Assembly: GCA_049700035.1 (NCBI GenBank) | Contig: JBNAWC010000002.1 | Span: 6,847 to 70,846 of the forward strand | Source: Candidatus Bathyarchaeales archaeon | GTDB taxonomy: Archaea; Thermoproteota; Bathyarchaeia; Bathyarchaeales; Bathycorpusculaceae | Reading direction: 5' to 3' | DNA length: 64,000 nucleotides | Made by a program: the position numbers and the translations under genes | Shown: in pieces, positions 14,441 through 36,143 of the stretch | Layout of the letters: the number at the start of each line of letters is the position of its first letter | How positions within the stretch are numbered: position 1 is the first letter of the stretch | The notes under the pieces: model-generated | Seen by the model: only the letters and a program-made list of their open reading frames with translations | What the model was told of the DNA's origin: nothing | Databases searched by the model: none

Positions 14441-15700
14441 CTAACCTACAAGTTTGGCGATGGCATCCGCCTTTTTCTTGTCCTCCGCCAAATACTCAAT
14501 CATTTCCAAGTCCAAGTCAAGCCATTTCGCAAGCCCAGCAGCCACATCAACATTATTCTTAAATATTATCCTAAGGTATGGGAGGATTTCTTTTGACGCC
14601 CTGTTGGCGGATATGTGGCATTTACGCTTGATTTTTTGCCCTATGCTCAGTTGAATTGCACGCTCAGCCTTAGACCTAGACAACATTTGTATGCGCGTTG
14701 GAAACTTGAATGGAACGAACCCATGAGTCTTCGTGTTCTGCCTAGCCATTGCAACTCCAGCAGTCATGTAATCAATAACGTAGCGAGTTAAACTCCAATC
14801 TTGCGTGGAGCGAATTCTACCCCTATAAACATCTGCCATCGAAAGCGCGTCCATAGCCCTCGCCAAATCATGAGGGTTAGTTAAATGCGCTGGAACGTTC
14901 TCATAAATCCACTCGAAAAGCATGTCAATGTCAACGTCAGCCATGTCAACCGCTTGCTTTGCACTGTTGCATGTGCGCGCATAAATTATCATCCGCAAAA
15001 CATTAAAAATCGTGTCTTGCCTATCCCTATAACCAAGCCAAGAAACATCCTCATACGTTAGCCTCTTCCTACCTTGAGCCAAAGCTTGAAGATCATTAAC
15101 CGCTGAGCGAACATCACCACTTGAGCGCTGGGCAATAAACTTTAAAGCATCCTCATCAGCTTGTATCCCCTCGCGGAGACATATACGTTTCAAATGCTTC
15201 ACGACTTCGCTTGCTGGCGGCTTCTTAAACTCTATTAGCAAGCAGTAGTTACGGAGGTTAGCAAATCTTGGGTCATAAGCGTTATTTGCAATCAGAACTA
15301 TTGGGCACTGGGCAACTTTAACAATGTCCGTTATCGCTTTAACACCGCCCTTATCAGCTGTTCCAGTAAGCCCGTCAAGCTCATCCAAAAGTATTATTCT
15401 TCTACCACCGAAAAGCGAGCCATACTGCGAAGCCAAACCAGCAAAACGGTTAATCGCCTCCTCAGTCCTATAATCGCTTGCGTTTTTCTCAACAAGCTCC
15501 ATTTTAAAGTCAGCCGCAAGAGCCTCAACAGTAACAGTTTTCCCAACACCAGGAGGACCAAAGATGAAGGCTGCACGCTTTTTTGGCGTTCCCTTGTCCC
15601 AAGATTTTATCCATTCGACGAACGTTTGAATAGCCTCTTTGTTTCCAATAATTTCATCTAGGGATTTTGGCTTGTGCTTAACAGTCCAAGCGGCGTACAA
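14441..15700 (-). CDS. rfcL: replication factor C large subunit
   Basis: WTVKHKPKSLDEIIGN and Walker A GPPGVGKT, with the RFC-large C-terminal region. TTG start. Confidence 0.9.
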   Translation of the reverse strand: MYAAWTVKHKPKSLDEIIGNKEAIQTFVEWIKSWDKGTPKKRAAFIFGPPGVGKTVTVEALAADFKMELVEKNASDYRTEEAINRFAGLASQYGSLFGGRRIILLDELDGLTGTADKGGVKAITDIVKVAQCPIVLIANNAYDPRFANLRNYCLLIEFKKPPASEVVKHLKRICLREGIQADEDALKFIAQRSSGDVRSAVNDLQALAQGRKRLTYEDVSWLGYRDRQDTIFNVLRMIIYARTCNSAKQAVDMADVDIDMLFEWIYENVPAHLTNPHDLARAMDALSMADVYRGRIRSTQDWSLTRYVIDYMTAGVAMARQNTKTHGFVPFKFPTRIQMLSRSKAERAIQLSIGQKIKRKCHISANRASKEILPYLRIIFKNNVDVAAGLAKWLDLDLEMIEYLAEDKKKADAIAKLVG

Positions 15701-15711
15701 ACGTTTTGCAC

Positions 15712-16692
15712 CTAACTTGCCTTTTTAATTTCGTAGCCAGCCTCCACAAGCCTCGCTAACAAGGCGCTTAGCTGAACCTCCTCGTCTGCGCCCTCAACAA
15801 GCCTATAATCTATATCGCCGACAATGTCAGCCAACTTTATCTTCCACGGCTCTGGAATATTCGCCCTAAAAATTTCAGTGTGAATCTGCCTAATTATGTC
15901 GCTTCCAGCCACGCCATACTTCTGAATCATGTCACGCAACTGTTTTCTGGCTTCCAAAAAGTTGCCATTAATCGCAGTTTCTATCATCTTCTGCACATCC
16001 GCTGGATGAGCCCTACCAGCAATAGAATAAACAACCTTCGCGTCCACAGGCCTATTCAGCGAAGCGGCAGCTTGAAGCGTGTTTATCGCCTTTCGCAAAT
16101 CGCCACCGCAGACCTCAAAGATTGCATCTAACCCGTCCTTCAAAAGCTTGACGCCCTCTTTTTCAGCTATGTACTTAAGGTATTTGTCATGCTCTTCTCT
16201 TGGTAAAAACGTGAACCGAAACGGAGCGCAACGCGACTGGATGGGTTCAATTATTTTTCCGCTGTAGTTAGCGCATAAAATGAAACGGCATGTTTCAGTA
16301 TACCGTTCCATAGTCCGCCTTAAAGCTTGCTGCGCATCAGCAGTCATGTTATCCGCTTCGTCCAAAATCATAAGCTTAAAGGGAATTTCACCAATAGACC
16401 TTACACGAGCAAACGTTTTGACTGTTTCCCTAACAACATCTATGCCTCTCTCGTCGCTTGCATTCAACTCCATAATATGCTCGCGATAGGCATCGCCATA
16501 CAAGTCCCTAGCCAAACAAAGCGCAGCAGTAGTCTTTCCAGTTCCAGGCGGCCCAGCGAAGATGCAATGCGGCACATTTTTGGATTTAACGAAACTCTTG
16601 AGTCGCTCAACTATCTCCTTCTGGTTAACCATTTCATCCAGCGTTTTTGGTCTATATTTTTCAGCCCACATTTCAAAACTCAAAGTTTCCAC
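15712..16692 (-). CDS. rfcS: replication factor C small subunit
   Basis: WAEKYRPKTLDEMVNQ, GPPGTGKT, DEADNM, and SRC motif (IQSRCAPFRF). GTG at 16692; alternative ATG at 16671. Confidence 0.92.
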   Translation of the reverse strand: METLSFEMWAEKYRPKTLDEMVNQKEIVERLKSFVKSKNVPHCIFAGPPGTGKTTAALCLARDLYGDAYREHIMELNASDERGIDVVRETVKTFARVRSIGEIPFKLMILDEADNMTADAQQALRRTMERYTETCRFILCANYSGKIIEPIQSRCAPFRFTFLPREEHDKYLKYIAEKEGVKLLKDGLDAIFEVCGGDLRKAINTLQAAASLNRPVDAKVVYSIAGRAHPADVQKMIETAINGNFLEARKQLRDMIQKYGVAGSDIIRQIHTEIFRANIPEPWKIKLADIVGDIDYRLVEGADEEVQLSALLARLVEAGYEIKKAS

Positions 16693-19671: not shown

Positions 19672-21627
19672 TTATTCGCTTTCTGGGATTATCTTTTCTT
19701 CCTTTTCAAGGAAACCTGTCAAGAATATGGCGTATTCGCATGGGTGCTCGTTTTGTAGCAGGGATTTTATTATTTTTATTTTCCCCTTTTTGCCGTGGCT
19801 AACCCTAGAAATAATGTATTCAAGTGTTTTTTTCCGAAGACCGCAGAGCCACGTTTTCTGGTTGGTTTTGACCAGTTTGTAGTAGGGACAACTTTTGTAT
19901 TTTAGGGTGAAGCCTCCTTCAAAATATTCTATTTCAACTTCTACTCCTATTTCGCGATACATGTCAATAAGCCTTGCACCAACATCTTTGATTGTCCACG
20001 GGTAATCTTCTGGGAAAAGTGCATCTAACTGCTCTTTTTCAATGGCGAAAGCTTCCTCGATGGAGTTGCAAGACATGCCTTCAATGAGTGTTTGCATTAG
20101 CTTTTTCCGTGGCAATGGCTCCAGAACTGGTTTTTCCAAAAGTTTCAGTTTAAAGCTTAGCAGGTTCTGGAATGTTGTTGTTGAAACTTCATAACCTAAC
20201 TCCTTAAACATCGATTCTATTAAAATGCGTTGGCTGTTCATTACAAGAGGGTCTATCCGTTTAAAAATGATTGTGAAATGTTCATCACCAACAAACCTCA
20301 CTTCAGCGTCGGGCTGCGTTACGCTAATGCTTTTAATAATGAAGTTTTTAGAAAGACTACCGATTTTTTCTGGGTCGCTTCTAGCAAGCATGCGGATGGC
20401 GTTTGAGATGCGGACTCCTGTTGCGCGGTATATTTCCTCAAATTTTTGTCTATCACTCTCGTATACTTTTGCTGCAAAGGAGTTGAAGAGGTCGCGTGGA
20501 ACTGGGACAACATCTAAGAATTGCTTTCCTATTATTTGGAAGAGGTTTAGTTCTGCCAGCTGGTCTAGAATGCTTTGGTCTTCTGCGCCTACGTACTGTA
20601 TTGTCATATTTACATTTGCATGCTCGATTGAGTAGTGTAAAAGTTTCCATCCGCGTGTTGCCAAAACTATTGAAAGCACTGTTAAGGATAGACGGGCTGT
20701 CGATACGGCTGTGGCTTGAAAAACTAGCTCTAACGTGTTCTCTTTCTCTGTTAGAACTTTAACTTGCCTAAACCAGTTCATCTTGACAAAAGCAGAAATG
20801 ATGGTCTTCACGAAATCTTTGGGCTCTCTCGGAAACTCGCTAATGCCGAGAACTGTTCTTGCATCTTCTATGAAGTTGCCCAATTCTGTTACTGGTTCTT
20901 CCAGATGCTTTTCAGCCCAACCCATGAATGCTGGTCCAACAAGCATCAACGTGTTTTTGAACAACCCAGGAGTCACGTTTGCAAGTTCTTTTTCAATTTG
21001 CTGTTCCAGAAATTCGCCGAATTCCTTTCTTCTTAATGGGTAAATTTCGGGGCGAATCATTTTTATGGCTATGTCCTCGCCCATGATTCGTAGGTCGAAA
21101 TTCACGCTTATGCCTTCTAATATTGTGGCAACTTGAAAGGCAACCATTACGGGTAAACGTTTGAAGACTCTTGGTCTTAGTACGGCTATGCTGTCTATTT
21201 CGCTGTATGAGGGAATGTCAAAAAGGTTTGTAAGTCCTTTTATCTCTTCTAAAATCAGTAGGAATTCTTTGAAGTTTGATGGAGCTTTCCATGCGACAGA
21301 GCTTTTTAATATTTCGATTATGTTCTTTGCCTCTGCCTTTTGCTCCTTTATTAAGTCTTCAACTGTTTTGTTTCCTAGGGCGACTTCTAATAGGCTGTCA
21401 AGGCTTTTCCTACTAATCGATGTTAGGTCAAGCGCCTCTCTCAGTTTAGTTTGCTCATTAATTTTTGCTTTGATTGCACAATCGTCGCAAGAGCCAACCT
21501 TGTCCACCCTAAACAGAGTCTCTACAGCTTTTTCGAGGACACGGCTTTTCGTGCCATAGGTTTTTGCTAGTTCTTCAAGAATCTCGTCTGTTTTTCTGGT
21601 TATTGTTGTGTGAAGATGTACCGACAT
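19672..21627 (-). CDS. large uncharacterised protein: N-terminal ribbon-helix-helix (CopG/Arc-like) domain, repeated alpha/beta modules, and a C-terminal Cys-containing V4R/'methanogen output domain'-like module
   Basis: N-terminus VHLHTTITRKTDEILEELAKTYGTKSRVLEKAVETLF fits the RHH strand-helix-helix pattern. C-terminus KSCPYYKL...TWLCGL...HPCEYAIF. No enzyme motifs seen. Confidence 0.5.
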   Translation of the reverse strand: MSVHLHTTITRKTDEILEELAKTYGTKSRVLEKAVETLFRVDKVGSCDDCAIKAKINEQTKLREALDLTSISRKSLDSLLEVALGNKTVEDLIKEQKAEAKNIIEILKSSVAWKAPSNFKEFLLILEEIKGLTNLFDIPSYSEIDSIAVLRPRVFKRLPVMVAFQVATILEGISVNFDLRIMGEDIAIKMIRPEIYPLRRKEFGEFLEQQIEKELANVTPGLFKNTLMLVGPAFMGWAEKHLEEPVTELGNFIEDARTVLGISEFPREPKDFVKTIISAFVKMNWFRQVKVLTEKENTLELVFQATAVSTARLSLTVLSIVLATRGWKLLHYSIEHANVNMTIQYVGAEDQSILDQLAELNLFQIIGKQFLDVVPVPRDLFNSFAAKVYESDRQKFEEIYRATGVRISNAIRMLARSDPEKIGSLSKNFIIKSISVTQPDAEVRFVGDEHFTIIFKRIDPLVMNSQRILIESMFKELGYEVSTTTFQNLLSFKLKLLEKPVLEPLPRKKLMQTLIEGMSCNSIEEAFAIEKEQLDALFPEDYPWTIKDVGARLIDMYREIGVEVEIEYFEGGFTLKYKSCPYYKLVKTNQKTWLCGLRKKTLEYIISRVSHGKKGKIKIIKSLLQNEHPCEYAIFLTGFLEKEEKIIPESE

Positions 21628-21667
21628 TATGATTCACGGGTTATCTTTTGGATTGGTTACTTTTAAA

Positions 21668-21697
21668 CATGTTCATAAAAATTTGTGGAATGTACAT
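21668..21697. promoter_or_regulatory. ATGTWCAT box pair upstream of the RHH-protein gene
   Basis: ATGTTCAT at 21669-21676 and palindromic ATGTACAT at 21690-21697, 21 bp apart. They abut a TTTAAAAG TATA-like element (21660-21667, minus sense) 33-40 nt upstream of ATG 21627. Confidence 0.5.
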
Positions 21698-21711
21698 AGA
21701 AAAGGGGGATG

Positions 21712-23490
21712 TTAACTTGGCGTTAATGGTGGCACGATGGGGCTGAATGTTGTGCCCTTTCTGGCTACGAGTGCATCTGCTACTCTTTTAACGGCTAACA
21801 TGTAGGCTGCTGTGCGCATGTTCACATTGTACTGTTTTGACATTTTAAGCACATCTTGGAAAGCCTTGGTTATTGTTTCCTTCAGTTTATTTCTAACTTC
21901 TTCTTCAGTCCAGTAATAGTTCATTTGGTTCTGCACTTGCTCAAAGTAGCTGACGATTACTCCGCCAGAGTTGGCGAGAATGTCTGGAATTACAAAAACG
22001 CCTTTTTTGAACAGAATTTCATCCGCCTCTGGAGTTGTAGGTCCATTAGCACCTTCTGCAACGATTTTTGCTTTTATGTTTGGCGCGTTTTCCTTTGTTA
22101 TTTGGTTTTCTAATGCTGCTGGAACTAGGATGTCGCATTCTAATTCTAACAATTGTTCATTTGTTATGAAAGTGCTGCTAGGATAGTCAACAACTGAACC
22201 AGTTTTCTCCTTGTGCATCAAGACTTTTTCTGGGTCTAAGCCTTCTGGGTTGTAAGCGCCTCCTTTTGAGTCTGAAACTGCAATGATTTTGCATCCGATT
22301 TCATGGAGTAGACGTGCTGCATGGTAGCCGACGTTTCCGTAGCCTTGCACTGCGACAGTTGCGCCTTTGAGGTCTATCCCAAGATGTTTAGCGGCTTCGA
22401 CAACGGTGTACATAAGCCCCCTTGATGTGGCTTCGCTTCTCCCACGAGAGCCACCCACATGAACAGGTTTTCCAGTAACCACGCCAAAAACGGGATAGCC
22501 GACTATTTCGCTGTATTCGTCCATTATCCAAGCCATCATTTCAGCGGTTGTGTAAACGTCTGGCGCTGGCACATCTGTGAAAGGTCCTATGAACTTTGCT
22601 ATGGCACGTACATATCCCCTTGTGAGACGCTCAAGTTCTGCCCTTGACATTTCCTTGGGATTGCACCTAATTCCACCCTTGCCCCCGCCGAGAGGCAAAC
22701 CTGTCACGGCTGTTTTCCATGTCATCCAAGCAGCTAAGGCAGTAACTTCGTCCAAGGTGAGGTCTGGATGGTATCTTATGCCGCCCTTTGTTGGACCTAA
22801 AGCGTCATTGTATTGAACGCGGTATCCAGTGAAAACTTGGATGCTGCCATCATCCATGACTACTGGAATGTTGACGATAAGTGTGCGCATTGGGCGCTTC
22901 AATATTTCATGTATGCCTGGGTCGAGATTCAGTTTTTCGGCGGCTACGTCTAGCTGTTTAAGGGCGGCTTCATAAGGGTTTGGCGTGACCGCTAGAGGGG
23001 CTAAAGTGTCAACTTTGACAAACACGGCTGTTTGGAGTTTCTCAACTAAGTTCTTGAGGGTTTCCTTTGCTACTTCACCGTTGCCTTCACTGCTTCCATA
23101 AAACCACAAGTAAGTTTCAGTCAAAGCGTCTTCCTTCCTAGAGAGGAACGCCCCAGCCGGAGCCATTTTTGGACTTTCAGAGAAATAGTCAACGAGAACT
23201 CGCAGCATGTTAAGTTCTTCGCGTGTCAGAGGCAAAAGTTTCTTTATCAGTTCTGGCGCTTTCACGTGAACGTATTCAGCGTCCAACAATTTCTTCTGTA
23301 GCTCTTCAAAGACTTTTAAGGAATCCTCTATCGGTATGCCAAAGTTTTCTGAGTACGTTGTAAGCAAGGCATAGTGAGCCGTTGTGTAGCTTTCTATTTT
23401 TGCTGTCAACTCTGGTTTTTCAGCAAAGAAGTCCACCATTAACTTAAGCATTCCCAATTCACGAGCTGAAAGGTCTACCGAGTTTAACAT
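21712..23490 (-). CDS. glutamate dehydrogenase with ~170-aa internally duplicated N-terminal extension
   Basis: GDH core from NPYEAALKQLDVAAEKLNLDPG: GPTKGGIRYHP, catalytic-Lys loop PLGGGKGG, and Rossmann VAVQGYGNVG. ATG 23490 with GGAAGGTG upstream is preferred over TTG 23514. Confidence 0.85.
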   Translation of the reverse strand: MLNSVDLSARELGMLKLMVDFFAEKPELTAKIESYTTAHYALLTTYSENFGIPIEDSLKVFEELQKKLLDAEYVHVKAPELIKKLLPLTREELNMLRVLVDYFSESPKMAPAGAFLSRKEDALTETYLWFYGSSEGNGEVAKETLKNLVEKLQTAVFVKVDTLAPLAVTPNPYEAALKQLDVAAEKLNLDPGIHEILKRPMRTLIVNIPVVMDDGSIQVFTGYRVQYNDALGPTKGGIRYHPDLTLDEVTALAAWMTWKTAVTGLPLGGGKGGIRCNPKEMSRAELERLTRGYVRAIAKFIGPFTDVPAPDVYTTAEMMAWIMDEYSEIVGYPVFGVVTGKPVHVGGSRGRSEATSRGLMYTVVEAAKHLGIDLKGATVAVQGYGNVGYHAARLLHEIGCKIIAVSDSKGGAYNPEGLDPEKVLMHKEKTGSVVDYPSSTFITNEQLLELECDILVPAALENQITKENAPNIKAKIVAEGANGPTTPEADEILFKKGVFVIPDILANSGGVIVSYFEQVQNQMNYYWTEEEVRNKLKETITKAFQDVLKMSKQYNVNMRTAAYMLAVKRVADALVARKGTTFSPIVPPLTPS

Positions 23491-23522
23491 CTTTTCACAC
23501 CTTCCGAAAACCAACGAAAGTG

Positions 23523-23570
23523 ATGTTCAACTATAGAAACGTTATGTCCATCATGTACACGCATGTACAA
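23523..23570. promoter_or_regulatory. array of four ATGTNCAN boxes in the divergent GDH / KaiC-like promoter
   Basis: ATGTTCAA 23523, ATGTCCAT 23544, ATGTACAC 23553, and ATGTACAA 23563, with start-to-start spacing of 21, 9 and 10 bp. Confidence 0.5.
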
Positions 23571-23607
23571 GACAATAAAACAACCAAATTGCAACATAAC
23601 ATTTTTA

Positions 23608-24387
23608 ATGATGCCCACCACTCTTAAACATGGTGCACAATCCTTGATTAGCGAAAACCAAGCACGATACTCAACTGGAATAAAAAGCCTAGACGGACTC
23701 CTCGAAGGCGGATTACTCCTAGGAGAGAACGTCTTATGGGAAGTTGATTCTGGAACTTTCGCAAGAGAATTCATGTATTCGTTCATGCGCCAAGGACTAT
23801 TGGAAGGAAAACAGGTAATTTATTTAGATTTCATATATCCCCCACAAGCACTTATGCTCCAACTTGAACCGTTGACCAAATTGCTGCCAAGCGGATGGGA
23901 AAAGAAACTATTAGTTTTAGACTGCTTTTCAGAAGCAGCTGGACAAGGTGAACTTATATTTAATGATTTTTATGACAAGGCACCGTCTTGGATTAGGAAA
24001 GTTCCAAGCTCAAAAGATCCAGAACGCTTTCACCATTTCTTCGGAAGAATTGAAAGAGAATTTGTAACTCCAGGAACTAGGCTTGTTTTTAACAGTTTGT
24101 CAATTATGGAGCACAATTGGGGAAGGGATGTCGTAAAAGCGTTTTTTGGACATGTGTGTCCAGCGTTATATGCTTATCAAACTCTTGCTTATTGGACAAT
24201 GGCGAAAAATGCGCATCCAAAAGAGTTCTGCGCAATAATTGAGCATATAACACAGGTGGTTATTGACCTTTCAAGGCAAGGCGATAAAAACTTTCTACAG
24301 GTAAAGAAGGCTGGTGGAAGATACAACCCGCAAACATACCAGCGACGCGAGTACACTGTTAAGGGCTTGCAAATAGATATCCTTTAA
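23608..24387 (+). CDS. KaiC/RecA-superfamily-like protein with degenerate Walker A (predicted pseudo-ATPase)
   Basis: YSTGIKSLDGLLEGGLLLGENVLWEVDSGTFAREF aligns to the KaiC-like 'StGIpgLDelLgGGlp.G...li.G.pGtGKT.f' pattern, but GK[TS] is replaced by FAR. Walker-B-like LLVLDCFSE is retained. Start could be 23608, 23611 or 23563. Confidence 0.6.
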   Translation: MMPTTLKHGAQSLISENQARYSTGIKSLDGLLEGGLLLGENVLWEVDSGTFAREFMYSFMRQGLLEGKQVIYLDFIYPPQALMLQLEPLTKLLPSGWEKKLLVLDCFSEAAGQGELIFNDFYDKAPSWIRKVPSSKDPERFHHFFGRIEREFVTPGTRLVFNSLSIMEHNWGRDVVKAFFGHVCPALYAYQTLAYWTMAKNAHPKEFCAIIEHITQVVIDLSRQGDKNFLQVKKAGGRYNPQTYQRREYTVKGLQIDIL

Positions 24388-24410
24388 TGATTAGGAGCTA
24401 CTGCGTTCTT

Positions 24411-24428
24411 ATGTACATTCATGTTCAT
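24411..24428. promoter_or_regulatory. ATGTWCAT box pair upstream of the GltS-FMN-like gene
   Basis: ATGTACAT at 24411-24418 and ATGTTCAT at 24421-24428, 10 bp apart. They lie 23 bp upstream of TATA-like GTTTAAATG (24451-24459). Confidence 0.5.
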
Positions 24429-24506
24429 TTTTCGCGATTTTTAGGATAATGTTTAAATGTTGACGAAAATTAACCCCTTCATACCGAAATTTACAAACGT
24501 AAAAAG

Positions 24507-26123
24507 GTGAAAAAGATGACTGAGCGCGTATTCAGAAACAGTTCTTACCTGAACGGAAAATCAACAACTGGAACAACCACACGCGTCAAAGACACAAGCC
24601 CAACAAGTGGAATGTGTCCAATATGCATTCGCGATTGCCCAATAATGTGCGAGATTGGACTTTCAGCTTTCAGGGGAAGAGAAGCCCTATACCCAGAACC
24701 AGTACAATTCGGATACAGCACGGCTGGAGCACTCAAAGACTTTGGACTAGACTGGTCACACTTCAACATACAAGCTGGACTTTTTGAAGCTTTAGGTATA
24801 GAGGAAAACTCTGACGTTGCACTGTTTCCAAACGCAAGCACAGAAACAGTTGTTGCGGGCATACCACTAAAAATACCAGTGTTATGTGGCGCTTTCGGCT
24901 CAACAGACGTTGCAAGACTAAACTGGGAAGGATTAGCCATAGGAACAGCATTATCAGGCGCCATCATAATAGTTGGAGAAAACGTCTGCGGCATGGACCC
25001 CGAAGCACAATTCACAAATGGTAAAGTCACGTACTCCAAAGAACTGAAACGTAGAGTAGACTTGTTCAGAAAGTTCTGGGATGGAAAATACGGAGACATA
25101 GCAGTCCAAACAAACGTTGAAGACCAACGTTTAGGAGTTGATGTCTACGCCATCTCAAAACTGGAAGTCAATGTCATAGAAAGAAAATGGGGACAAGGAG
25201 CGAAGGCAATTGGAGGCGAAGTCCGAGTAAGAGACTTGCAAAGGGCGATAATGCTAAAGAAAAGAGGATACGTCGTGATTCCAGACCCAGAGGACCCAAC
25301 TGTGCAGCAAGCATTCAAGGAAGGCGTCTTCAAGTCGTTTGAAAGACATAGCCGCGTTGGAATACCGAAAGAAAAGAACATGATAGAAGACATAGAATGG
25401 TTGCGCGAGCAAGGTGCAAAACATGTGACGCTAAAAACTGGCGCCTACAGACCATCAGCAGTGGCATACACGTTAAAAATAGCTTCAGAAGCAAAAATTG
25501 ACGCAGTATACTTTGACGGGGCTGGTGGCGGAACTGGAATGAGCCCAGTTCCAATGATGGACGAGATGAGCATACCAACAGTGTATTTGGAAGCAATAGT
25601 TCTAAGGTGCGCGCAATTGCTGAAGAAGAAGGGTAAATACGTTCCAGACTTGATTATGGCTGGAGGCTTCATAAATGAAACACAGATTTTCAAGGCAATC
25701 GCAATGAGCAACTTCGGAGATGGCCCATTTGTGAAGGCAGTTTTGATGGGACGCTCCCCGCTGACCGCTGTAATGAAGGCAAGCTACTTCAAACAGTTAG
25801 CAGAAGAAGGCAAACTGCCAAAAGCTTTCGCAGATAGATTTGGTAACACTCCAGACAAATTCTTCATTGCAGCACCAGAACTAAGGGAGAAGTATGGTGA
25901 GCGCTTCAAAGAAATTCCATGGGAAGCGGTTGCACTTTACACTTACCTAACAGACCGAATAGGAGTCGGCTTAAAACAACTCCTAGCTGGAAACAGAAAG
26001 TGGAAACTGGAGCTAATAAACAGAAATGACCTAATGAGCCTATCAGAAATAGCTGCAAAAGTAACAGGCATACCATTGCCACACGAAGTTGAGGCAGACG
26101 CCATCGAAAGAATATTAAACTAA
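24507..26123 (+). CDS. FMN-binding glutamate synthase family protein (GltB domain-2-like), divergent, with N-terminal Cys cluster
   Basis: WGQGAKAIGGEV and FDGAGGGTGMSP match the GltS FMN-domain QGAKPGEGG / GGTGA(S)P motifs. N-terminal CPICIRDCPIMCE. GTG 24507 or ATG 24516. Confidence 0.7.
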   Translation: MKKMTERVFRNSSYLNGKSTTGTTTRVKDTSPTSGMCPICIRDCPIMCEIGLSAFRGREALYPEPVQFGYSTAGALKDFGLDWSHFNIQAGLFEALGIEENSDVALFPNASTETVVAGIPLKIPVLCGAFGSTDVARLNWEGLAIGTALSGAIIIVGENVCGMDPEAQFTNGKVTYSKELKRRVDLFRKFWDGKYGDIAVQTNVEDQRLGVDVYAISKLEVNVIERKWGQGAKAIGGEVRVRDLQRAIMLKKRGYVVIPDPEDPTVQQAFKEGVFKSFERHSRVGIPKEKNMIEDIEWLREQGAKHVTLKTGAYRPSAVAYTLKIASEAKIDAVYFDGAGGGTGMSPVPMMDEMSIPTVYLEAIVLRCAQLLKKKGKYVPDLIMAGGFINETQIFKAIAMSNFGDGPFVKAVLMGRSPLTAVMKASYFKQLAEEGKLPKAFADRFGNTPDKFFIAAPELREKYGERFKEIPWEAVALYTYLTDRIGVGLKQLLAGNRKWKLELINRNDLMSLSEIAAKVTGIPLPHEVEADAIERILN

Positions 26124-26206: not shown

Positions 26207-27457
26207 ATGAAAGAACAGCAAACAGCACTTGACGTGGCTCTGGAACAGTTAGAAATAGCCGCTGAAAAATTAAACTTAGAACCTGGAATACATGAGATGC
26301 TGAAGCACCCCAAAAGGTCGCTAATTGTCTCCATTACGATAAGGATGGATGATGGAAGCATACACGTTTTAAAGGGATGCCGCGTTCAACATTGGGATGC
26401 ACGCGGACCATTTAAGGGTGGAATCCGCTATCACCCAAATGTAACACTTGAAGAGGTAACCGCACTTGCAATGTGGATGACTTGGAAATGCGCTGTTGTA
26501 GACATTCCATACGGAGGGGCAAAAGGTGGAATATGCTGTAATCCGAAGGAAATGTCAAAAAGTGAACTTGAAAGGCTTACAAGAAGGTACACAAGCCTAA
26601 TTCTTGATTACATTGGCCCGTACCGTGATGTACCAGCACCAGACGTTTACACAGACGCGCAAACAATGGCCTGGATAATGGACACATACAGCCAATTCAA
26701 AGGCTACAGCGTCCCAGAATGCGTAACTGGAAAACCAATAAGTGTTGGCGGCTCTGAGGGAAGAGAGGAAGCAACCTCAAGAGGAGTTGTAATCTGCGCA
26801 AGGGAAGCAGCAAAACGTTTAGGCTTAAAGTTTAAAGGCGCAACTGTCGCAGTGCAAGGCTACGGAAACGTCGGGTGGAACGCAGCAAAAATCGCACATG
26901 ACATAGGATGCAAAATTGTCGCAGTTAGCGACTCCACTGGAGGAATCTATTGCCCAGAAGGCTTAAACCCACGCAAAGTCTACGAACACAAGGCAAAAAC
27001 TGGCTCAGTAATTAACTATCCAAAATGCAAAAACATATCAAACGAGGAATTACTCGAAACAAAATGTGACATATTAATTCCAGCGGCGCTTGAAAACCAA
27101 ATAACAAGAGCTAATGCAGACAAGATAAAAGCGAAAATAATAGTCGAAGGCGCAAATGGACCGACAACCCCAGAAGCAGACAAAATACTTCGAGAAAGGG
27201 GAATTTTTCTGGTTCCAGACATCTTGGCAAACGCTGGCGGAGTAACAGTAAGCTATTTTGAATGGGTTCAAAACTTAACAAGAGAACATTGGACATTGGA
27301 AGAAGTGAACAGAAAACTCGAGAACATAATGGTGAAAGCGTTCAATGACGTTTACAACTTGATGGAAAAGAAAAAGGAGGCCATGCGCACAGCAGCATTA
27401 ATGCTTGGTGTCGGAAGAGTAAGCGAAGCAATAAAAACATTGGGACTATGGCCATAA
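26207..27457 (+). CDS. gdhA: glutamate dehydrogenase (canonical ~416 aa hexameric type)
   Basis: GPFKGGIRYHP, PYGGAKGG, and VAVQGYGNVG. About 60% identity by eye to the core of the extended paralog at 21712-23490. Confidence 0.92.
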   Translation: MKEQQTALDVALEQLEIAAEKLNLEPGIHEMLKHPKRSLIVSITIRMDDGSIHVLKGCRVQHWDARGPFKGGIRYHPNVTLEEVTALAMWMTWKCAVVDIPYGGAKGGICCNPKEMSKSELERLTRRYTSLILDYIGPYRDVPAPDVYTDAQTMAWIMDTYSQFKGYSVPECVTGKPISVGGSEGREEATSRGVVICAREAAKRLGLKFKGATVAVQGYGNVGWNAAKIAHDIGCKIVAVSDSTGGIYCPEGLNPRKVYEHKAKTGSVINYPKCKNISNEELLETKCDILIPAALENQITRANADKIKAKIIVEGANGPTTPEADKILRERGIFLVPDILANAGGVTVSYFEWVQNLTREHWTLEEVNRKLENIMVKAFNDVYNLMEKKKEAMRTAALMLGVGRVSEAIKTLGLWP

Positions 27458-27592
27458 CAGAAAACTGCCGAACCCCGATTTAAAACCCAACTTTCATATA
27501 ACCTTTACATTTTCAACTTTACAATCTAAATTTTTAAACTGTTGTCCTTATATCTCTACGCAGATGCAATTCCTGAAAATGGAGAAGGAGAA

Positions 27593-28162
27593 ATGCGGGA
27601 AAACGCATTAAACATCAAAACCTTAGACTTTGAATTTGAAAATTCATTAGTGAAAGTTATTGCTAATAGAAACTGCCCTGAAATTAAACTTGGAGGGCTA
27701 AATGTAGGACCGTTTGAAGAGGGGAATGTGTATGAAGTTCAGTTCTGGGTTGCGGAGGAACTTGAAAAGGCGGGAATTGTACGTTTTCGCGAGGAAGAAA
27801 TTTTGGATGCAAAAAAGATTTACAAGATTCAGTGGATGGAACGCGTCCAAACGCCACGCCAAATATCAAAGCTCCCAGAGAACTTCTACCCAAAACTTAG
27901 AAGGTATTTAGCAGAGTTAAAGAAGGCTTCCGCCAAGTCTCCAGAAAAAATGAGGGAGTACGAAAAAAGTAGGCAAGTGATACGTGATATGGTGAACGCG
28001 CGCCTAAAAAAGATTGTTTCATTAGCAACCGCAAATTTTGGACAAACTGAACAAATCTTGAAAAACCTCACATGCGAAGAACGGCTAATTTATGAACGTT
28101 TGCGCAAGCTTATCCACAACTGGAAAGCCAAAATATTGGAGTATGAGGAGCAAGGAGAATGA
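27593..28162 (+). CDS. gins23: GINS complex subunit Gins23
   Basis: B-domain-first architecture (GPFEEGNVYEVQFWVAEELEKAGIVRF), then a helical A domain (LPENFYPKLRRYLAEL...RDMVNARLKKIV). Overlaps the mcm start (ATGA), as in the Sulfolobus gins23-mcm operon. ATG 27593 follows GGAGAAGGAG. Confidence 0.75.
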   Translation: MRENALNIKTLDFEFENSLVKVIANRNCPEIKLGGLNVGPFEEGNVYEVQFWVAEELEKAGIVRFREEEILDAKKIYKIQWMERVQTPRQISKLPENFYPKLRRYLAELKKASAKSPEKMREYEKSRQVIRDMVNARLKKIVSLATANFGQTEQILKNLTCEERLIYERLRKLIHNWKAKILEYEEQGE

Positions 28163-30207
28163 CTGGAGAATTAGAGGTTGTAAACCCCCAAGAGCAGTTC
28201 CAAGAGTTCTTCAAAACAGAAAAGTACAGACAAAGAATAGCGCAGTTGGCTGTTGCTGGCAAAACATCGCTAATAGTTGATTTTGAAGACCTCCTAATCT
28301 TTGACAACAAACTCGCAGAAAAGCTACTTGAAAAACCAGACGAGTATCTGCAATATGCCAATAATGCAGCTTATTCGCAGCTTGAAAGCGAAGACCCAGA
28401 ATACGCCGAAAGACTGGCCAGCAAACGAGAAACACTAACCGTCAGAATAGTTAGGCTATTAGAGGCAACACCATTAAGAAAACTCGGCTCAGACCACATT
28501 GGAAAACTAGTAATGATAGAAGGCATCGTTGTACGCTCAACGCCAGCACGTCCAATGGTCATACGAGCAGCGTTCAAATGCAGACGATGCGGAGAAATAT
28601 CGTTTGAGGACCAGACAGGACAATTCCTAAAGGCGCCTTTCAAATGCAGAAACCCAGAATGCGGAGCAAAGGGGCCATTTGACTTTATCCAAGAAGAATC
28701 CGCATTCATAGATTCACAAGAGTTGCGCGTCCAAGAAAGACCAGAGGATTTGCCACCAGGTCAGCTTCCAAGAACATTGCACGTCAAGCTTGTCGGAGCG
28801 GAAATCGTTGATGTCGCAAGACCAGGCGACCACGTTTCAATAGTTGGCATAGTTCGCGTTGTTGCTCCATCGCTTCCAAGAGTTGGAAAACTTCGCACTT
28901 TTAGGCTTCATTTAGATGCAAATTCCATAGAAGTTTTGGGTAAAGAGCCAGAGACAGCTCTTCCGTCACCAGAGGAAGAGGAAAAAATCTTGGAGTTGGC
29001 AAAGGACCCGTGGATACATAGGAAGATAATAAATTCGATTGCACCGTCAATTTATGGCTATGACCACGTGAAAGAGGCGATAATGTACCTTCTCTTTGGC
29101 GGAGTGCCAAAAAATCTTCCAGACATAACAATAAGAGGCGAAATAAATACCCTCCTAATAGGCGACCCAGGAACCGCTAAATCACAACTTCTGCAATATG
29201 TTGCGAGAATTGCACCGCGTGGACTTTACACTTCTGGACGTGGCACAACAGCCGCCGGCTTAACAGCAGCGGTTATCCGAGAAAAGGGTGGAGGAATGAG
29301 TCTTGAGGCTGGCGCGCTTGTTTTAGCTGACAAGGGAATCGCTTGTATAGATGAAATGGATAAGATGCGCCCAGAAGATAGGGTTGCAATTCACGAAGCA
29401 ATGGAACAACACACAGTTTCGGTTGCAAAAGGCGGCATTGTAGCAACTCTAAACGCAAGAACAGCAATTCTTGCGGCTGCAAATCCCGCTTTCGGAAGGT
29501 ACGTGCCGGAACGTGCAATAGCCGAAAACATCTCTTTGCCGGTTACGATACTCTCTAGGTTCGACTTGATTTTCGTTTTAAGGGATGTGCCAAATAAGGA
29601 GTTAGACGGCAAAATGTCAGAACACATTTTGGAAATGCATAGAAAAAGTTCAAGCCCAACGGAACCTCCAATACCAACGGAGCTTCTGCGAAAATACATA
29701 AGCTATGCTAGGGGAATAAAGCCGGTTCTAACGCAAGAAGCATTACAAAGACTTAGGGACTTTTATTTGGCAATGCGTGCCGTAAGCGAATCAGAAGGCT
29801 CACCAGTCGCAATTACAGCCAGACAGCTTGAATCGCTTGTGCGCATAGCTGAGGCAAGAGCCAGAGCAGCACTAAGAAAAGAGGTTTTAGCCGAAGATGC
29901 TGAGGCAGCCATCGCAATAATGAAAAGGTCGCTTGAAGAAGTTGGCATAGATGTTTCCTCCTTTAAAATAGACATAGATACAATAATGACTGGAAAGCCT
30001 AAAAGCATGAGGGACAAGCTTCACGTTATCATTTCAAAGTTGATGGAGATGGAAAAAGAGACGGGACTCGTTGAAAAAAGGGCGCTTATAGATGAATTGG
30101 AGAGTAAACATAAGATTCAAAGAGCTGAAGCAGAACGCTTGATAGGACAATTATTACGCGAAGGAACAATATACGAGCCTAGAGAAGGCTACTTAAAGAA
30201 GACATAA
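28159..30207 (+). CDS. mcm: MCM replicative helicase
   Basis: Zn finger CRRCGE...CRNPECG, Walker A LLIGDPGTAKSQ, Walker B CIDEMDKM, and arginine finger SRFDLIF. Confidence 0.95.
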   Translation: MTGELEVVNPQEQFQEFFKTEKYRQRIAQLAVAGKTSLIVDFEDLLIFDNKLAEKLLEKPDEYLQYANNAAYSQLESEDPEYAERLASKRETLTVRIVRLLEATPLRKLGSDHIGKLVMIEGIVVRSTPARPMVIRAAFKCRRCGEISFEDQTGQFLKAPFKCRNPECGAKGPFDFIQEESAFIDSQELRVQERPEDLPPGQLPRTLHVKLVGAEIVDVARPGDHVSIVGIVRVVAPSLPRVGKLRTFRLHLDANSIEVLGKEPETALPSPEEEEKILELAKDPWIHRKIINSIAPSIYGYDHVKEAIMYLLFGGVPKNLPDITIRGEINTLLIGDPGTAKSQLLQYVARIAPRGLYTSGRGTTAAGLTAAVIREKGGGMSLEAGALVLADKGIACIDEMDKMRPEDRVAIHEAMEQHTVSVAKGGIVATLNARTAILAAANPAFGRYVPERAIAENISLPVTILSRFDLIFVLRDVPNKELDGKMSEHILEMHRKSSSPTEPPIPTELLRKYISYARGIKPVLTQEALQRLRDFYLAMRAVSESEGSPVAITARQLESLVRIAEARARAALRKEVLAEDAEAAIAIMKRSLEEVGIDVSSFKIDIDTIMTGKPKSMRDKLHVIISKLMEMEKETGLVEKRALIDELESKHKIQRAEAERLIGQLLREGTIYEPREGYLKKT

Positions 30208-34364: not shown

Positions 34365-34919
34365 CTACAAGCCCCCAAGCTCAACTTTTTCAGCTAAACC
34401 CTGCTTGACAAGAATGTTAGCATTTTCAATAGGCACAGATGCAACATCTTCAGCCTTAAACGGCCCATAAGCTTTCATATCCGCGCCAATTATCGCTGGA
34501 ACATCAACCAAAAAACGCAAAACATCCCTCTTATGCACGGTCTCAGCCTCTGCTTTTGGCAAAAGCCCACGAAGAACACTTTTAATAAAGTTCTGAACAG
34601 CATCCGCGAAGGGGGTGGCTCCACCATAAATTTTCGCTTCTTCAGCCGTCAACATATCCTGAGAAATTTTTCCACCCTCTGCCAAAACTTTAATCACTTT
34701 CCTGTAGCGCGCCAAGACAATTTCATTAACCATTCGCTTTACGTTGACTAGTTCACGTTTTAGCAGACTAGCCTTAACAGTTTTCTTATCAAGCATTCGA
34801 CTTTCTTCCCTAAGCCTCCGCATATAATCCGCAACCATAACGTAAAAGTCTGGAGGAAGCCTTTGAAGCTCTGAATTTTTGACCTCACGCTCCCAAGCTT
34901 CATACAAACTCTTATACAA
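34365..34919 (-). CDS. gins51: GINS complex subunit Gins51 (Gins15)
   Basis: A-domain-first architecture (LQRLPPDFYVMVADYMRRL...LARYRKV), then a B domain (YGPFKAEDVASVPIENANILVKQGLAEKV). TTG start directly abuts the priS stop, matching the conserved priS-gins51 synteny. Confidence 0.75.
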   Translation of the reverse strand: MYKSLYEAWEREVKNSELQRLPPDFYVMVADYMRRLREESRMLDKKTVKASLLKRELVNVKRMVNEIVLARYRKVIKVLAEGGKISQDMLTAEEAKIYGGATPFADAVQNFIKSVLRGLLPKAEAETVHKRDVLRFLVDVPAIIGADMKAYGPFKAEDVASVPIENANILVKQGLAEKVELGGL

Positions 34920-36143
34920 CTACGCTACAACCTCCGCCCTATTCTTACAAATAAGCAAAACAGCAGCTGCTGTCGGCAACTCAACCCTCTGATTTTTGTA
35001 TGGACCAAACGTTTCCTCGCCAATCCTAAACTTTGGCGCGTCATAAACTTTTACGTCAACAAAGCCCCCTTTAAAGGCTACCGCCATCTTAAATGGGTCA
35101 AAATCGTCAATAGCTGAAACTGGAAACTCCACCTTCTTAAAGCCAGTCTTACTATTCAAAGTGTCAGCCAACCTGATAAGCCGATGCGTGTCCGTCGTTA
35201 CAACGGTGTCTATGCTAGCAGATTTTAACTTCGCAACATGCCGAATTATCTTCGCCCGTGTTTGAGGGCCTATGCCCTTCACATAACCAAAAGTACCTTT
35301 TCTTTGGAGATTTTTTAGAATAACGTCTCTATTGCGCATGATTACGCTAATGAAGCGATTTTCAATGCCCATGTCCAGAAAGTCTTTCTCTTTAGCATTT
35401 GCAATAAAGTTTTCTATGCCAACTGCCAAGCGTTTAGGCCAACCAAAGTCATGCATAACCCTCTTTTGAGAAAATTCCTCTGTTAATAATATGTTGCTTT
35501 CAACGTTCAGACCCAATGCACAAACATAATCCACTATTTCCTTCCGCTCCATTGCGTCAAGCGTCTTAACGGCATCACTCTCAACATGTACATGGTAGCC
35601 CCTATGACCAGAAAAAAACGTGTGAATTTCATTTCCTGAAAAACCGAAATCCCGCGTTAACATTTCTAAAAGCTTTATTGTTTCCGCCTTCGCAGAACCC
35701 AAACATTCCTCACATGGCCAAGTGTTCACATCAAACTTTTCGCTGCTACATACGGGACATTTTTCTGGAGCAACTCCCTTCCCAGTGAAACCACAGTTGC
35801 CGCATTTCCACTCATCATGAACCTTATCGCACGACGTTGGTATATGGTCAGCATCTATGTCAAAAATTAAATCTGCGCCAAGCCAACCTTTCATATCCAT
35901 ATCAGCCCAGGGGTTCTCATAATAGGCACATGAAAAGTACGCGTCTGCATAAATTTCCCTCTTCAAAAATGATTCTAAACTTTCCTTTGTCTTGAAGCTA
36001 ATATGCCTTAACATAGTCTTCCCGTCAAAAGTTAAAAAACCAAACTCCCTTTGATCAATAATTGCGGGTGCATGAATTGCCGTGTAATTTTTCCTATAAT
36101 ACTCTCCAAATTTTCTTTTAATAAACTCGTGGGAAGCATTCAT
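34920..36143 (-). CDS. priS: DNA primase small (catalytic) subunit PriS
   Basis: Catalytic LIFDIDADH, SGHRGYHVHV, and zinc knuckle CGNCGF...CPVCS. Confidence 0.92.
   Translation of the reverse strand: MNASHEFIKRKFGEYYRKNYTAIHAPAIIDQREFGFLTFDGKTMLRHISFKTKESLESFLKREIYADAYFSCAYYENPWADMDMKGWLGADLIFDIDADHIPTSCDKVHDEWKCGNCGFTGKGVAPEKCPVCSSEKFDVNTWPCEECLGSAKAETIKLLEMLTRDFGFSGNEIHTFFSGHRGYHVHVESDAVKTLDAMERKEIVDYVCALGLNVESNILLTEEFSQKRVMHDFGWPKRLAVGIENFIANAKEKDFLDMGIENRFISVIMRNRDVILKNLQRKGTFGYVKGIGPQTRAKIIRHVAKLKSASIDTVVTTDTHRLIRLADTLNSKTGFKKVEFPVSAIDDFDPFKMAVAFKGGFVDVKVYDAPKFRIGEETFGPYKNQRVELPTAAAVLLICKNRAEVVA

Follow-up and report, generated by a model that had tools for sequence, protein, structure and literature searches.

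Ribbon-helix-helix (RHH) repressors, among them MetJ with its met boxes, Arc, CopG, omega and NikR, bind DNA through short repeated subsites. In archaea, TrmBL1 and SurR follow a positional rule by which sites over or downstream of the transcription factor B recognition element (BRE) and TATA box repress, while sites upstream of the BRE can activate; the TGM sequence is TATCAC-N5-GTGATA, and the SurR motif is GTTn3AAC. Sensor domains of the V4R/MetOD1 kind are found in the phenol sensors PoxR and MopR and, as MetOD1, in response regulators of methanogens, and PutA is a trigger enzyme that carries its own DNA-binding domain. Bathyarchaeia are abundant uncultured archaea of sediments and hot springs, thought to live largely on the degradation of protein and amino acids. 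No transcriptional regulator described for this group came up in our literature searches, and those on the regulation of glutamate dehydrogenase (GDH) in Bathyarchaeota and on TrpY with TGTACA returned nothing relevant. Here we analyse a 64-kb stretch of DNA from a Candidatus Bathyarchaeales archaeon (contig JBNAWC010000002.1, positions 6,847 to 70,846; hereafter the window), in which eight aTGTWCA boxes occupy three neighbouring promoters of a glutamate gene cluster. The best overall explanation, to which we assign a probability of roughly 0.6 on the basis of sequence comparisons, is that the boxes are operators of a one-component regulator for this cluster, namely the 651-residue protein that the cluster encodes.

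Phased boxes in three promoters

The boxes lie in region (a), the divergent spacer between the gene of an N-terminally extended GDH and a KaiC-like gene; in region (b), upstream of a GltS-like gene; and in region (c), upstream of the gene of the 651-residue protein (Table 1). An earlier, sequence-only reading of the window had listed these eight boxes, and each was found at its position when the sequence was re-read. All eight read alike on the plus strand, and the central base is constant for a given box, being T in the TATA-proximal boxes at 23523, 24421 and 21669 and A in those at 23553, 23563 and 21690. Exact copies of ATGTACAT number three in the window, at 21690, 24411 and 35586, the last within the gene with a DNA_primase_S domain, as had been said before. 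The same reading had built the box on an 8-bp palindrome. The boxes are real, but the alignments of related loci described below show the conserved unit to be the 7-mer aTGTWCA, with the eighth base, which completes the palindrome, only partly kept; in box a4 the leading A is likewise not kept across loci.

Against a composition-matched background, the informative signals are phased pairs and intergenic density, not single hexamers. In the 64-kb window, ATGTWCAT gave 10 strand-matches against 3.6 ± 2.1 expected, a marginal excess that 1 of 100 shuffles reached, and bare TGTWCA was not enriched, with 57 occurrences against 67 ± 8 in second-order Markov simulations, which is slightly rare if anything. 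Pairs of TGTWCA spaced by 9-11 or 20-22 bp, on the other hand, number exactly three in the 64 kb, one per promoter region; the same Markov model predicts 0.43 such pairs and produced a maximum of two in 200 simulations. A test restricted to intergenic DNA counted nine TGTNCA-class boxes within the three regions, which total 365 bp, and nine in the other 5543 bp, a 15-fold higher density in the three regions (expected number 0.59, Poisson P = 1.5e-8).

To place these sites among related genomes, a scan of 185,579 species genomes was used, which yielded 30 Bathyarchaeia loci. The whole gene order (651-residue protein, N-extended GDH, KaiC-like, GltS-like, second GDH) is kept in about 25 of the 30, and the proteins are 65-97% identical to those of the window. 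In intergenic alignments of 24-27 sequences per region, the most conserved columns are the box cores and the TATA-like elements: the cores reach 1.91-1.98 bits, against 1.02-1.12 bits for the other intergenic columns, and remain near-invariant while their flanks drift. The spacings of 21, 9 and 10 bp in region (a) and of 10 bp in region (b) show no indel in any genome, and that of region (c) varies from 19 to 21 bp. Across the approximately 330 kb of the 30 related loci, phased pairs are found solely at the orthologous promoters. One of these loci, L022, has its GltS-like gene relocated behind the gene of the 651-residue protein, and the pair ATGTTCATGAATGTTCA, with the TATA-like GCTTAAAT 22 bp downstream, has been relocated with it. 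The sequence-only reading, which had described phased sites in three neighbouring promoters at a spacing suited to cooperative binding, is therefore supported both by the enrichment over a composition-matched background and by conservation of the boxes in 24-27 orthologous loci.

These results bear on whether the boxes are protein operators at all. They might be chance repeats in AT-rich spacers, RNA structures or terminators, or origin recognition boxes, and some features of the locus are in line with this: replication genes (RFC, GINS, MCM, primase) flank the cluster, region (c) is located immediately 3′ of the stop codon of the GDH gene and beside T-runs, and for region (a) the minus strand gives a slightly better fold than shuffled sequences do (z = -2.1). 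Palindromic repeats alone would give that z value, however, and the other folds range from z = -0.4 to +0.2; no Rfam match was obtained at E ≤ 1 in 21000-25000; and most boxes lie upstream of TATA-like elements and would therefore not be transcribed. The part examined showed neither an AT-rich unwinding region nor an orc1/cdc6 gene, the search for origin-like repeats having covered 21-25 kb. Chance repeats or RNA elements would account poorly for the intergenic enrichment, the near-invariant conservation and the movement of a box pair with its gene in L022, and we regard this family of explanations as exceedingly improbable. By sequence criteria, the eight aTGTWCA boxes are very probably the operator sites of some transcription regulator.

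The sequence-only reading had also given all three promoters one layout, running from boxes to TATA-like element to gene. The elements that it named, AATAAAA (23574-23580), GTTTAAATG (24451-24459) and CTTTTAAAC (21660-21668), are all present, and the layout holds in regions (b) and (c); region (a) is more complex, with a1 and a2 flanking a TATA-like element of the minus strand. In region (c), approximately 37 bp separate the centre of the TATA-like element from the ATG downstream of it, at 21627, and box c1 abuts this element on its upstream side, so that in gene sense it would occupy the BRE position. The alignment consensus of region (a) is ATGTTCAA.TATAgAAa..TTaTGT.CAT, with zero indels between boxes in 26 loci. 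Its best conserved non-box element is the TATA-like ACTATAGAA (23530-23539), between a1 and a2, whose centre is 45 bp upstream of the GDH ATG, itself preceded by GGAAGGTG. Since ACTATAGAA reads TTTCTATAGT on the minus strand, it is probably the TATA box of the extended GDH. With this TATA box between them, a1 and a2, two helical turns apart, would sandwich it, a1 lying directly downstream in gene sense, between the putative TATA and the expected transcription start site (TSS). AATAAAA, which had been taken as the element of region (a), is only partly conserved; ahead of the KaiC-like gene, the element that is conserved is AACATAACATTTTTAA. On the KaiC-like side, as in region (b), a 10-bp pair stands 22-30 bp upstream of a conserved TATA-like element, the KaiC-like one ending at 23608. 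We take TTTCTATAG, TTTAAAAG, TTTAAATG and TTTTTAA as candidate TATA boxes. The NrpR nitrogen operator GGAA-N6-TTCC is absent from the three promoters, its sole match in the window being at 51734.

Table 1. Boxes, candidate promoter elements and cluster genes in window coordinates
Feature	Position	Strand	Remarks
Box a1, ATGTTCAA	23523..23530	plus	ATGTTCAA invariant in 25-26 of 26 loci
Box a2, ATGTCCAT	23544..23551	plus	21 bp from a1; central base T, C or A
Box a3, ATGTACAC	23553..23560	plus	9 bp from a2; TGTACA in 26 of 26 loci
Box a4, ATGTACAA	23563..23570	plus	10 bp from a3; TGTACA in 23 of 26 loci, TGAACA in 3 of 26
Box b1, ATGTACAT	24411..24418	plus	TGTWCA in 24 of 24 loci
Box b2, ATGTTCAT	24421..24428	plus	10 bp from b1, 22 bp upstream of TATA-like element; ATGTTCA in 24 of 24 loci
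Box c1, ATGTTCAT	21669..21676	plus	Core TGTTCA invariant in 27 of 27 loci
Box c2, ATGTACAT	21690..21697	plus	21 bp from c1 (19-21 bp in orthologues); TGTACA in 26 of 27 loci
TATA-like GTTTAAAAG (gene sense), 651-residue protein	21660..21668	minus	TTTAAA kept in all loci; putative TATA
Conserved A.TATAGAAA, minus-strand reading TTTCTATA.T	23530..23539	minus	Putative TATA of the extended GDH
Conserved AACATAACATTTTTAA	23593..23608	plus	Candidate BRE/TATA of the KaiC-like gene; consensus aaC..AAc.TTTTTAA
TATA-like GTTTAAATG, GltS-like gene	24451..24459	plus	tTTAAATG (24452-24459) conserved; putative TATA
651-residue protein, candidate cognate regulator	19672..21627	minus	No family match at default thresholds (Pfam, NCBIfam)
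GDH with N-terminal extension of ~180 residues	21712..23490	minus	Candidate target gene
KaiC-like/PAXNEB-like protein without Walker A motif	23644..24387	plus	Candidate target gene, or mere neighbour in the divergent region
GltS-like protein with flavin mononucleotide (FMN) domain	24516..26123	plus	Candidate target gene
Canonical second GDH	26207-27457	plus	83-bp gap after the GltS-like gene; gap without boxes

The 651-residue protein as candidate regulator

The regulator that reads the boxes is probably the 651-residue protein. Its gene is the only one of the cluster to encode a DNA-binding-like module, and boxes lie in its own promoter. Pfam and NCBIfam searches at default thresholds recognised no DNA-binding domain in any cluster protein, and the stronger case for this protein draws on its distant homologues. 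By exhaustive HMMER search, the family is tiny, comprising only 40 cluster representatives. The distant homologues, of 378-534 residues and 21-28% identical, are encoded on archaeal contigs of 33-58% GC and share an N-terminal pattern, R-V-x-L-H-T-T-I followed after about 12 residues by Y-G-T-K-S and then by V-x-E-x-A.

Boxes of the TGTNCA class lie directly upstream of the family gene in five of seven distant lineages. At locus L031 (protein P0249, 33% GC), the 9.5 kb contain four copies of the 9-mer ATGTGCATA, all of them in the two intergenic regions that flank the gene, forming two pairs at 19-20 bp. L033 (P0244, 36% GC) has four TTGWACAA-like boxes, spaced by 20, 22 and 22 bp and ending just upstream of TTTAAAA; in L034 (P0257, 58% GC), both copies of GTATGCACAT fall in the 141-bp upstream region, with TGGACA 10 bp from the first. 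Three ATGTTCA/TGAACAT boxes are present in L035 (P0273, 42% GC) and two boxes in L037 (P0245, 37% GC). Per-locus Poisson P values range from 0.00015 to 0.043, and Fisher's combined P over the seven lineages, with the window excluded, is 1.5e-5. The two lineages without boxes are both fusions to a receiver domain (REC) whose N-terminal strand differs, reading RIQTVIT in P0277 and differing also in P0268. Motif and protein family therefore travel together over deep divergence, which is the pattern that autoregulated cognate regulators predict.

Several distant homologues have two-component system genes as neighbours. Response-regulator or histidine-kinase genes adjoin them at L031 (2261-3826), L034 (2473-2859) and L036 (4671-6026), and at L039 (462-2599 and 4869-7605) distant homologues stand beside response-regulator/histidine-kinase, CheW and CheA-like chemotaxis genes. 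In P0268 and P0277, the receiver domain is C-terminal. The family appears to be connected to two-component signalling.

The distant loci also bear on the possibility that the binder is the extended GDH itself, acting through its N-terminal extension of about 180 residues as a PutA-like trigger enzyme whose hexamer would present many DNA-binding modules. The extension (22945-23490, minus strand) is internally duplicated (LSARELGMLKLMVDFF / LTREELNMLRVLVDYF; LSARELGMLKLMVDFFAEKPE / LTREELNMLRVLVDYFSESPK), conserved and confined to this lineage; only 14 homologues were found, on some metagenome contigs the extension is called as a separate open reading frame of about 185 residues (P0285), and the densest array of boxes lies in the extended GDH's own promoter. 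Yet no family matched the extension even at E ≤ 10, its AlphaFold2 (AF2) model is uninformative, with a predicted local distance difference test (pLDDT) score of 41, and the box-bearing distant loci have a homologue of the 651-residue protein with no GDH nearby. We consider binding by the GDH extension very improbable.

The sequence-only reading had called the 651-residue protein an RHH protein, a label that weak but consistent sequence matches make plausible but that the monomer AF2 model does not back. Pfam RHH_3 matches at E = 0.12 and 12.8 bits (cut-off 21.6), in register over 35 of 44 positions, and ParD_antitoxin, itself an RHH family, matches two distant members, out of ten members scanned, at E = 0.05. 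An hhalign comparison with a hand-compiled set of seven classical RHH domains gave a probability of 67% and P = 5e-5 in full register, with strand on strand, helix A on helix A, Gly turn on Gly turn and helix B on helix B. Searches of PDB sequences, run with the full profile and with the N-terminus both as a sequence and as a profile, returned nothing significant (an HhH segment of a ligase at E 0.06-0.3, and ParD at E 0.26), BLASTP against CopG produced no alignment, and no helix-turn-helix (HTH) or TrpY-like family matched the protein. The AF2 model is mediocre (pLDDT 64.5, predicted template modelling score 0.31, N-terminus 55-79), and a monomer model is a weak test of an obligate-dimer fold. 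Residues H4, H6, T7, T8, I9 and K12 are invariant among 34 orthologues; these putative recognition residues match the invariance of the box core.

Beyond the N-terminal domain, the AF2 model comprises four alpha-beta-beta-alpha-beta-beta repeats. Foldseek against the PDB gave nothing at E ≤ 0.001, the matches being de novo designs and weak similarities to H-NOX and Bet3, those to H-NOX at E of about 0.1 and TM of 0.33-0.37. The Cys-rich C-terminus matches MetOD1 (PF18546) at E = 0.014 and 15.9 bits, under the Pfam threshold of 23.8 bits, and precomputed PF18546 matches exist in three orthologues; MetOD1 is related to the HNOB and V4R domains (PMC5847659). Two groups of Cys and His residues are also seen. 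A CxxC (C47, C50) just after the N-terminal domain is invariant, with GSCDDC in several distant homologues, and a C-terminal C…C…HPC cluster (C580, C595, H628, C630) is invariant in the orthologues. Both may be metal or redox sites.

A number of points tell against the 651-residue protein as the reader of operators in these promoters. Operator function and the identity of the binder are both read from sequence, and the TATA and TSS positions from conservation. In the distant lineages, the P value of each locus is modest, and the boxes belong to a degenerate class, TGTNCA, whose central base varies between lineages. The RHH assignment falls under every curated threshold, the hhalign comparison set was compiled by hand, and AF2 places residues 3-24 in a single helix, followed by a helix at 27-39, not in a strand and helix. 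Moreover, three related loci (L025, L029 and L030) keep the boxes without an adjacent regulator gene. The regulator could be encoded outside the 64-kb window, for example as a TrpY-type HTH protein, with the boxes true operators and the 651-residue protein's gene one more regulated gene. This alternative shares the sub-threshold RHH assignment and the three loci without an adjacent regulator gene as points in its favour; enrichment and conservation are silent on which protein binds, and in Methanothermobacter overlapping divergent promoters carry several TRP boxes to which TrpY binds (PMC6737238). It fails, however, to predict boxes of the same class upstream of homologues only 21-28% identical, in unrelated contexts and at differing GC, and for a TrpY-type protein in particular the cluster holds no trp genes. 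We judge a regulator encoded elsewhere to be unlikely, and retain the 651-residue protein as the probable binder.

Predicted regulation and cluster genes

If the 651-residue protein binds the boxes, the N-extended GDH, the KaiC-like gene, the GltS-like gene and probably the second GDH would come under one sequence-specific regulator. The protein would consist of a small N-terminal RHH-like DNA-binding domain and repeated V4R/H-NOX/MetOD1-like sensor modules. One dimer would sit on each near-palindromic box, and the sensor modules would both bind a metabolite and keep several DNA-binding dimers joined, the multi-module body serving as the bridge. At spacings of 9-10 and 21 bp, the dimers would share one face of the helix, which would permit cooperative binding.

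The sign of regulation may be read from the positional rule of archaeal promoters. Because a1 and a2 flank the putative GDH TATA and c1 sits on the BRE position, the rule would point to repression at these two promoters by exclusion of TATA-binding protein and transcription factor B or of RNA polymerase; we put forward repression of the extended GDH and of the regulator's own gene as a tentative assignment. At the latter it would amount to autorepression. In the GltS-like and KaiC-like promoters, a pair lies upstream of the TATA-like element, an arrangement compatible with activation or with weaker repression. Judging by the target genes alone, our guess for the effector is a metabolite of the glutamate node.

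A broader and quite unlikely extension of this scheme, offered as speculation, would have the 651-residue protein found an undescribed archaeal family of one-component regulators with an RHH-like head, three or four V4R/H-NOX-like modules and sometimes a receiver domain, reading TG-NN-CA boxes. Its role in Bathyarchaeia would be that of a metabolite-sensing master switch that represses the N-extended GDH and itself and activates the GltS-like, second GDH and KaiC-like genes; feedback on it may come from the KaiC-like pseudo-ATPase or the GDH extension, in the manner of trigger enzymes and GvpD-type partners elsewhere.

The KaiC-like/PAXNEB(Elp4)-like protein has lost its Walker A motif (…WEVDSGTFAREF…), with identities of 73-94% over the 120 Bathyarchaeia homologue clusters listed, and probably serves as a pseudo-ATPase in a structural or regulatory capacity. 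Its gene most likely starts at the TTG at 23644, which a conserved GGTG precedes, rather than further upstream. In the homologue listings, relatives of this protein and of the 651-residue protein come solely from Bathyarchaeia metagenome-assembled genomes (MAGs) and are annotated as hypothetical.

In the 5′ leader of the GltS-like gene (24487-24510, plus strand), a strongly conserved TTTaCAAAyGTAAAGGTGA continues into the Shine-Dalgarno sequence. Its conservation exceeds what the Shine-Dalgarno sequence alone would need, and it may therefore act in the control of translation or as a second element controlling transcription. In two related genomes, L002 (8594-10065) and L025 (8338-9579), the second GDH gene is broken: the tblastn match has a gap of about 100 bp in the former and falls into several frame-shifted pieces in the latter, which points to a pseudogene, an insertion or a fault in the assembly. 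In one MAG, L029 (5448-5920; JACAEI010000043.1), the first 40 or so codons of the extended GDH are fused to the C-terminal part of the 651-residue protein, with RFC genes directly after and the boxes of regions (a) and (b) kept; this fusion is a deletion or a misassembly.

The glutamate cluster is flanked by TldD/PmbA peptidases and by replication genes (RFC, GINS, MCM, Gins51, PriS). The replication neighbourhood spans 14441-16692, 27542-30207 and 34365-36143, with the metabolic cluster inside it, and encodes the RFC large and small subunits, a GINS subunit with Sld5/PSF2-type domains, MCM, Gins51 and PriS.

Comparison with described systems

What the locus offers is a precise prediction in cis and in trans: a 7-bp box, eight sites, three promoters and a named candidate regulator, the latter from a family without annotation that occurs in several archaeal lineages beside signalling genes. 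Conceptually, such an element is unsurprising, and the main value lies in a regulon prediction for an uncultured phylum. If true, it would give a first handle on control of the GDH/GltS node, the link between carbon and nitrogen, in these organisms, and would add a new architecture of DNA-binding and sensor domains to the archaeal repertoire.

One resemblance is to the RHH repressors. As in that superfamily, whose operators consist of short repeated (pseudo)palindromic subsites, the boxes are near-palindromic, 7-8 bp long, present in two to four copies, of a size for one dimer and on one helix face, and a site occupies the promoter of the candidate regulator itself. The protein also shares with NikR and MetJ a small N-terminal DNA-binding domain, here putative, followed by a larger body for ligand binding and oligomerisation. 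The spacing differs, being 9-10 and 21 bp here against abutting 8-bp met boxes for MetJ and two distant half-sites for NikR, and neither the sequence nor the period agrees with the met box, whose consensus is AGACGTCT with an 8-bp period. The body is made of some 600 residues of repeated V4R/H-NOX-like modules, an architecture that no characterised RHH protein is known to have.

A second likeness is to the TrpY system of Methanothermobacter thermautotrophicus, whose TRP box reportedly has the consensus TGTACA. Both systems place several copies of a hexamer of this type in overlapping divergent archaeal promoters (here region (a)), include the regulator gene (here a candidate) among the controlled genes and act on an amino-acid pathway. 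The targets here are GDH and GltS-like genes and not trp genes, the adjacent candidate regulator has no HTH or TrpY match, and the central base of the box, unlike that of TRP boxes, varies while staying constant per box.

As for TrmBL1, SurR and Tgr, a single motif lies downstream of or over the BRE/TATA at some promoters and upstream at others within a small metabolic regulon, although motif and protein family differ. The C-terminal 100 or so residues of the 651-residue protein, with their conserved Cys and His and weak similarity to MetOD1 and H-NOX, recall the V4R/MetOD1 sensors; here, the domain is joined to a DNA-binding-like N-terminus and not to REC or AAA+. Operators of YefM/Axe antitoxins are reported to have TGTACA cores repeated about one helical turn apart at an autoregulated promoter (PMC7730913, PMC4803016), an arrangement that resembles the one predicted here. 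These are bacterial toxin-antitoxin modules of the Phd/YefM fold, whereas the locus studied here has no toxin-antitoxin genes. The pair of boxes and candidate regulator is thus not a demonstrable member of the MetJ/Arc/CopG/omega/NikR or TrpY families: motif and regulator family are both undescribed, and an operator served by a one-component regulator is a familiar kind of system.

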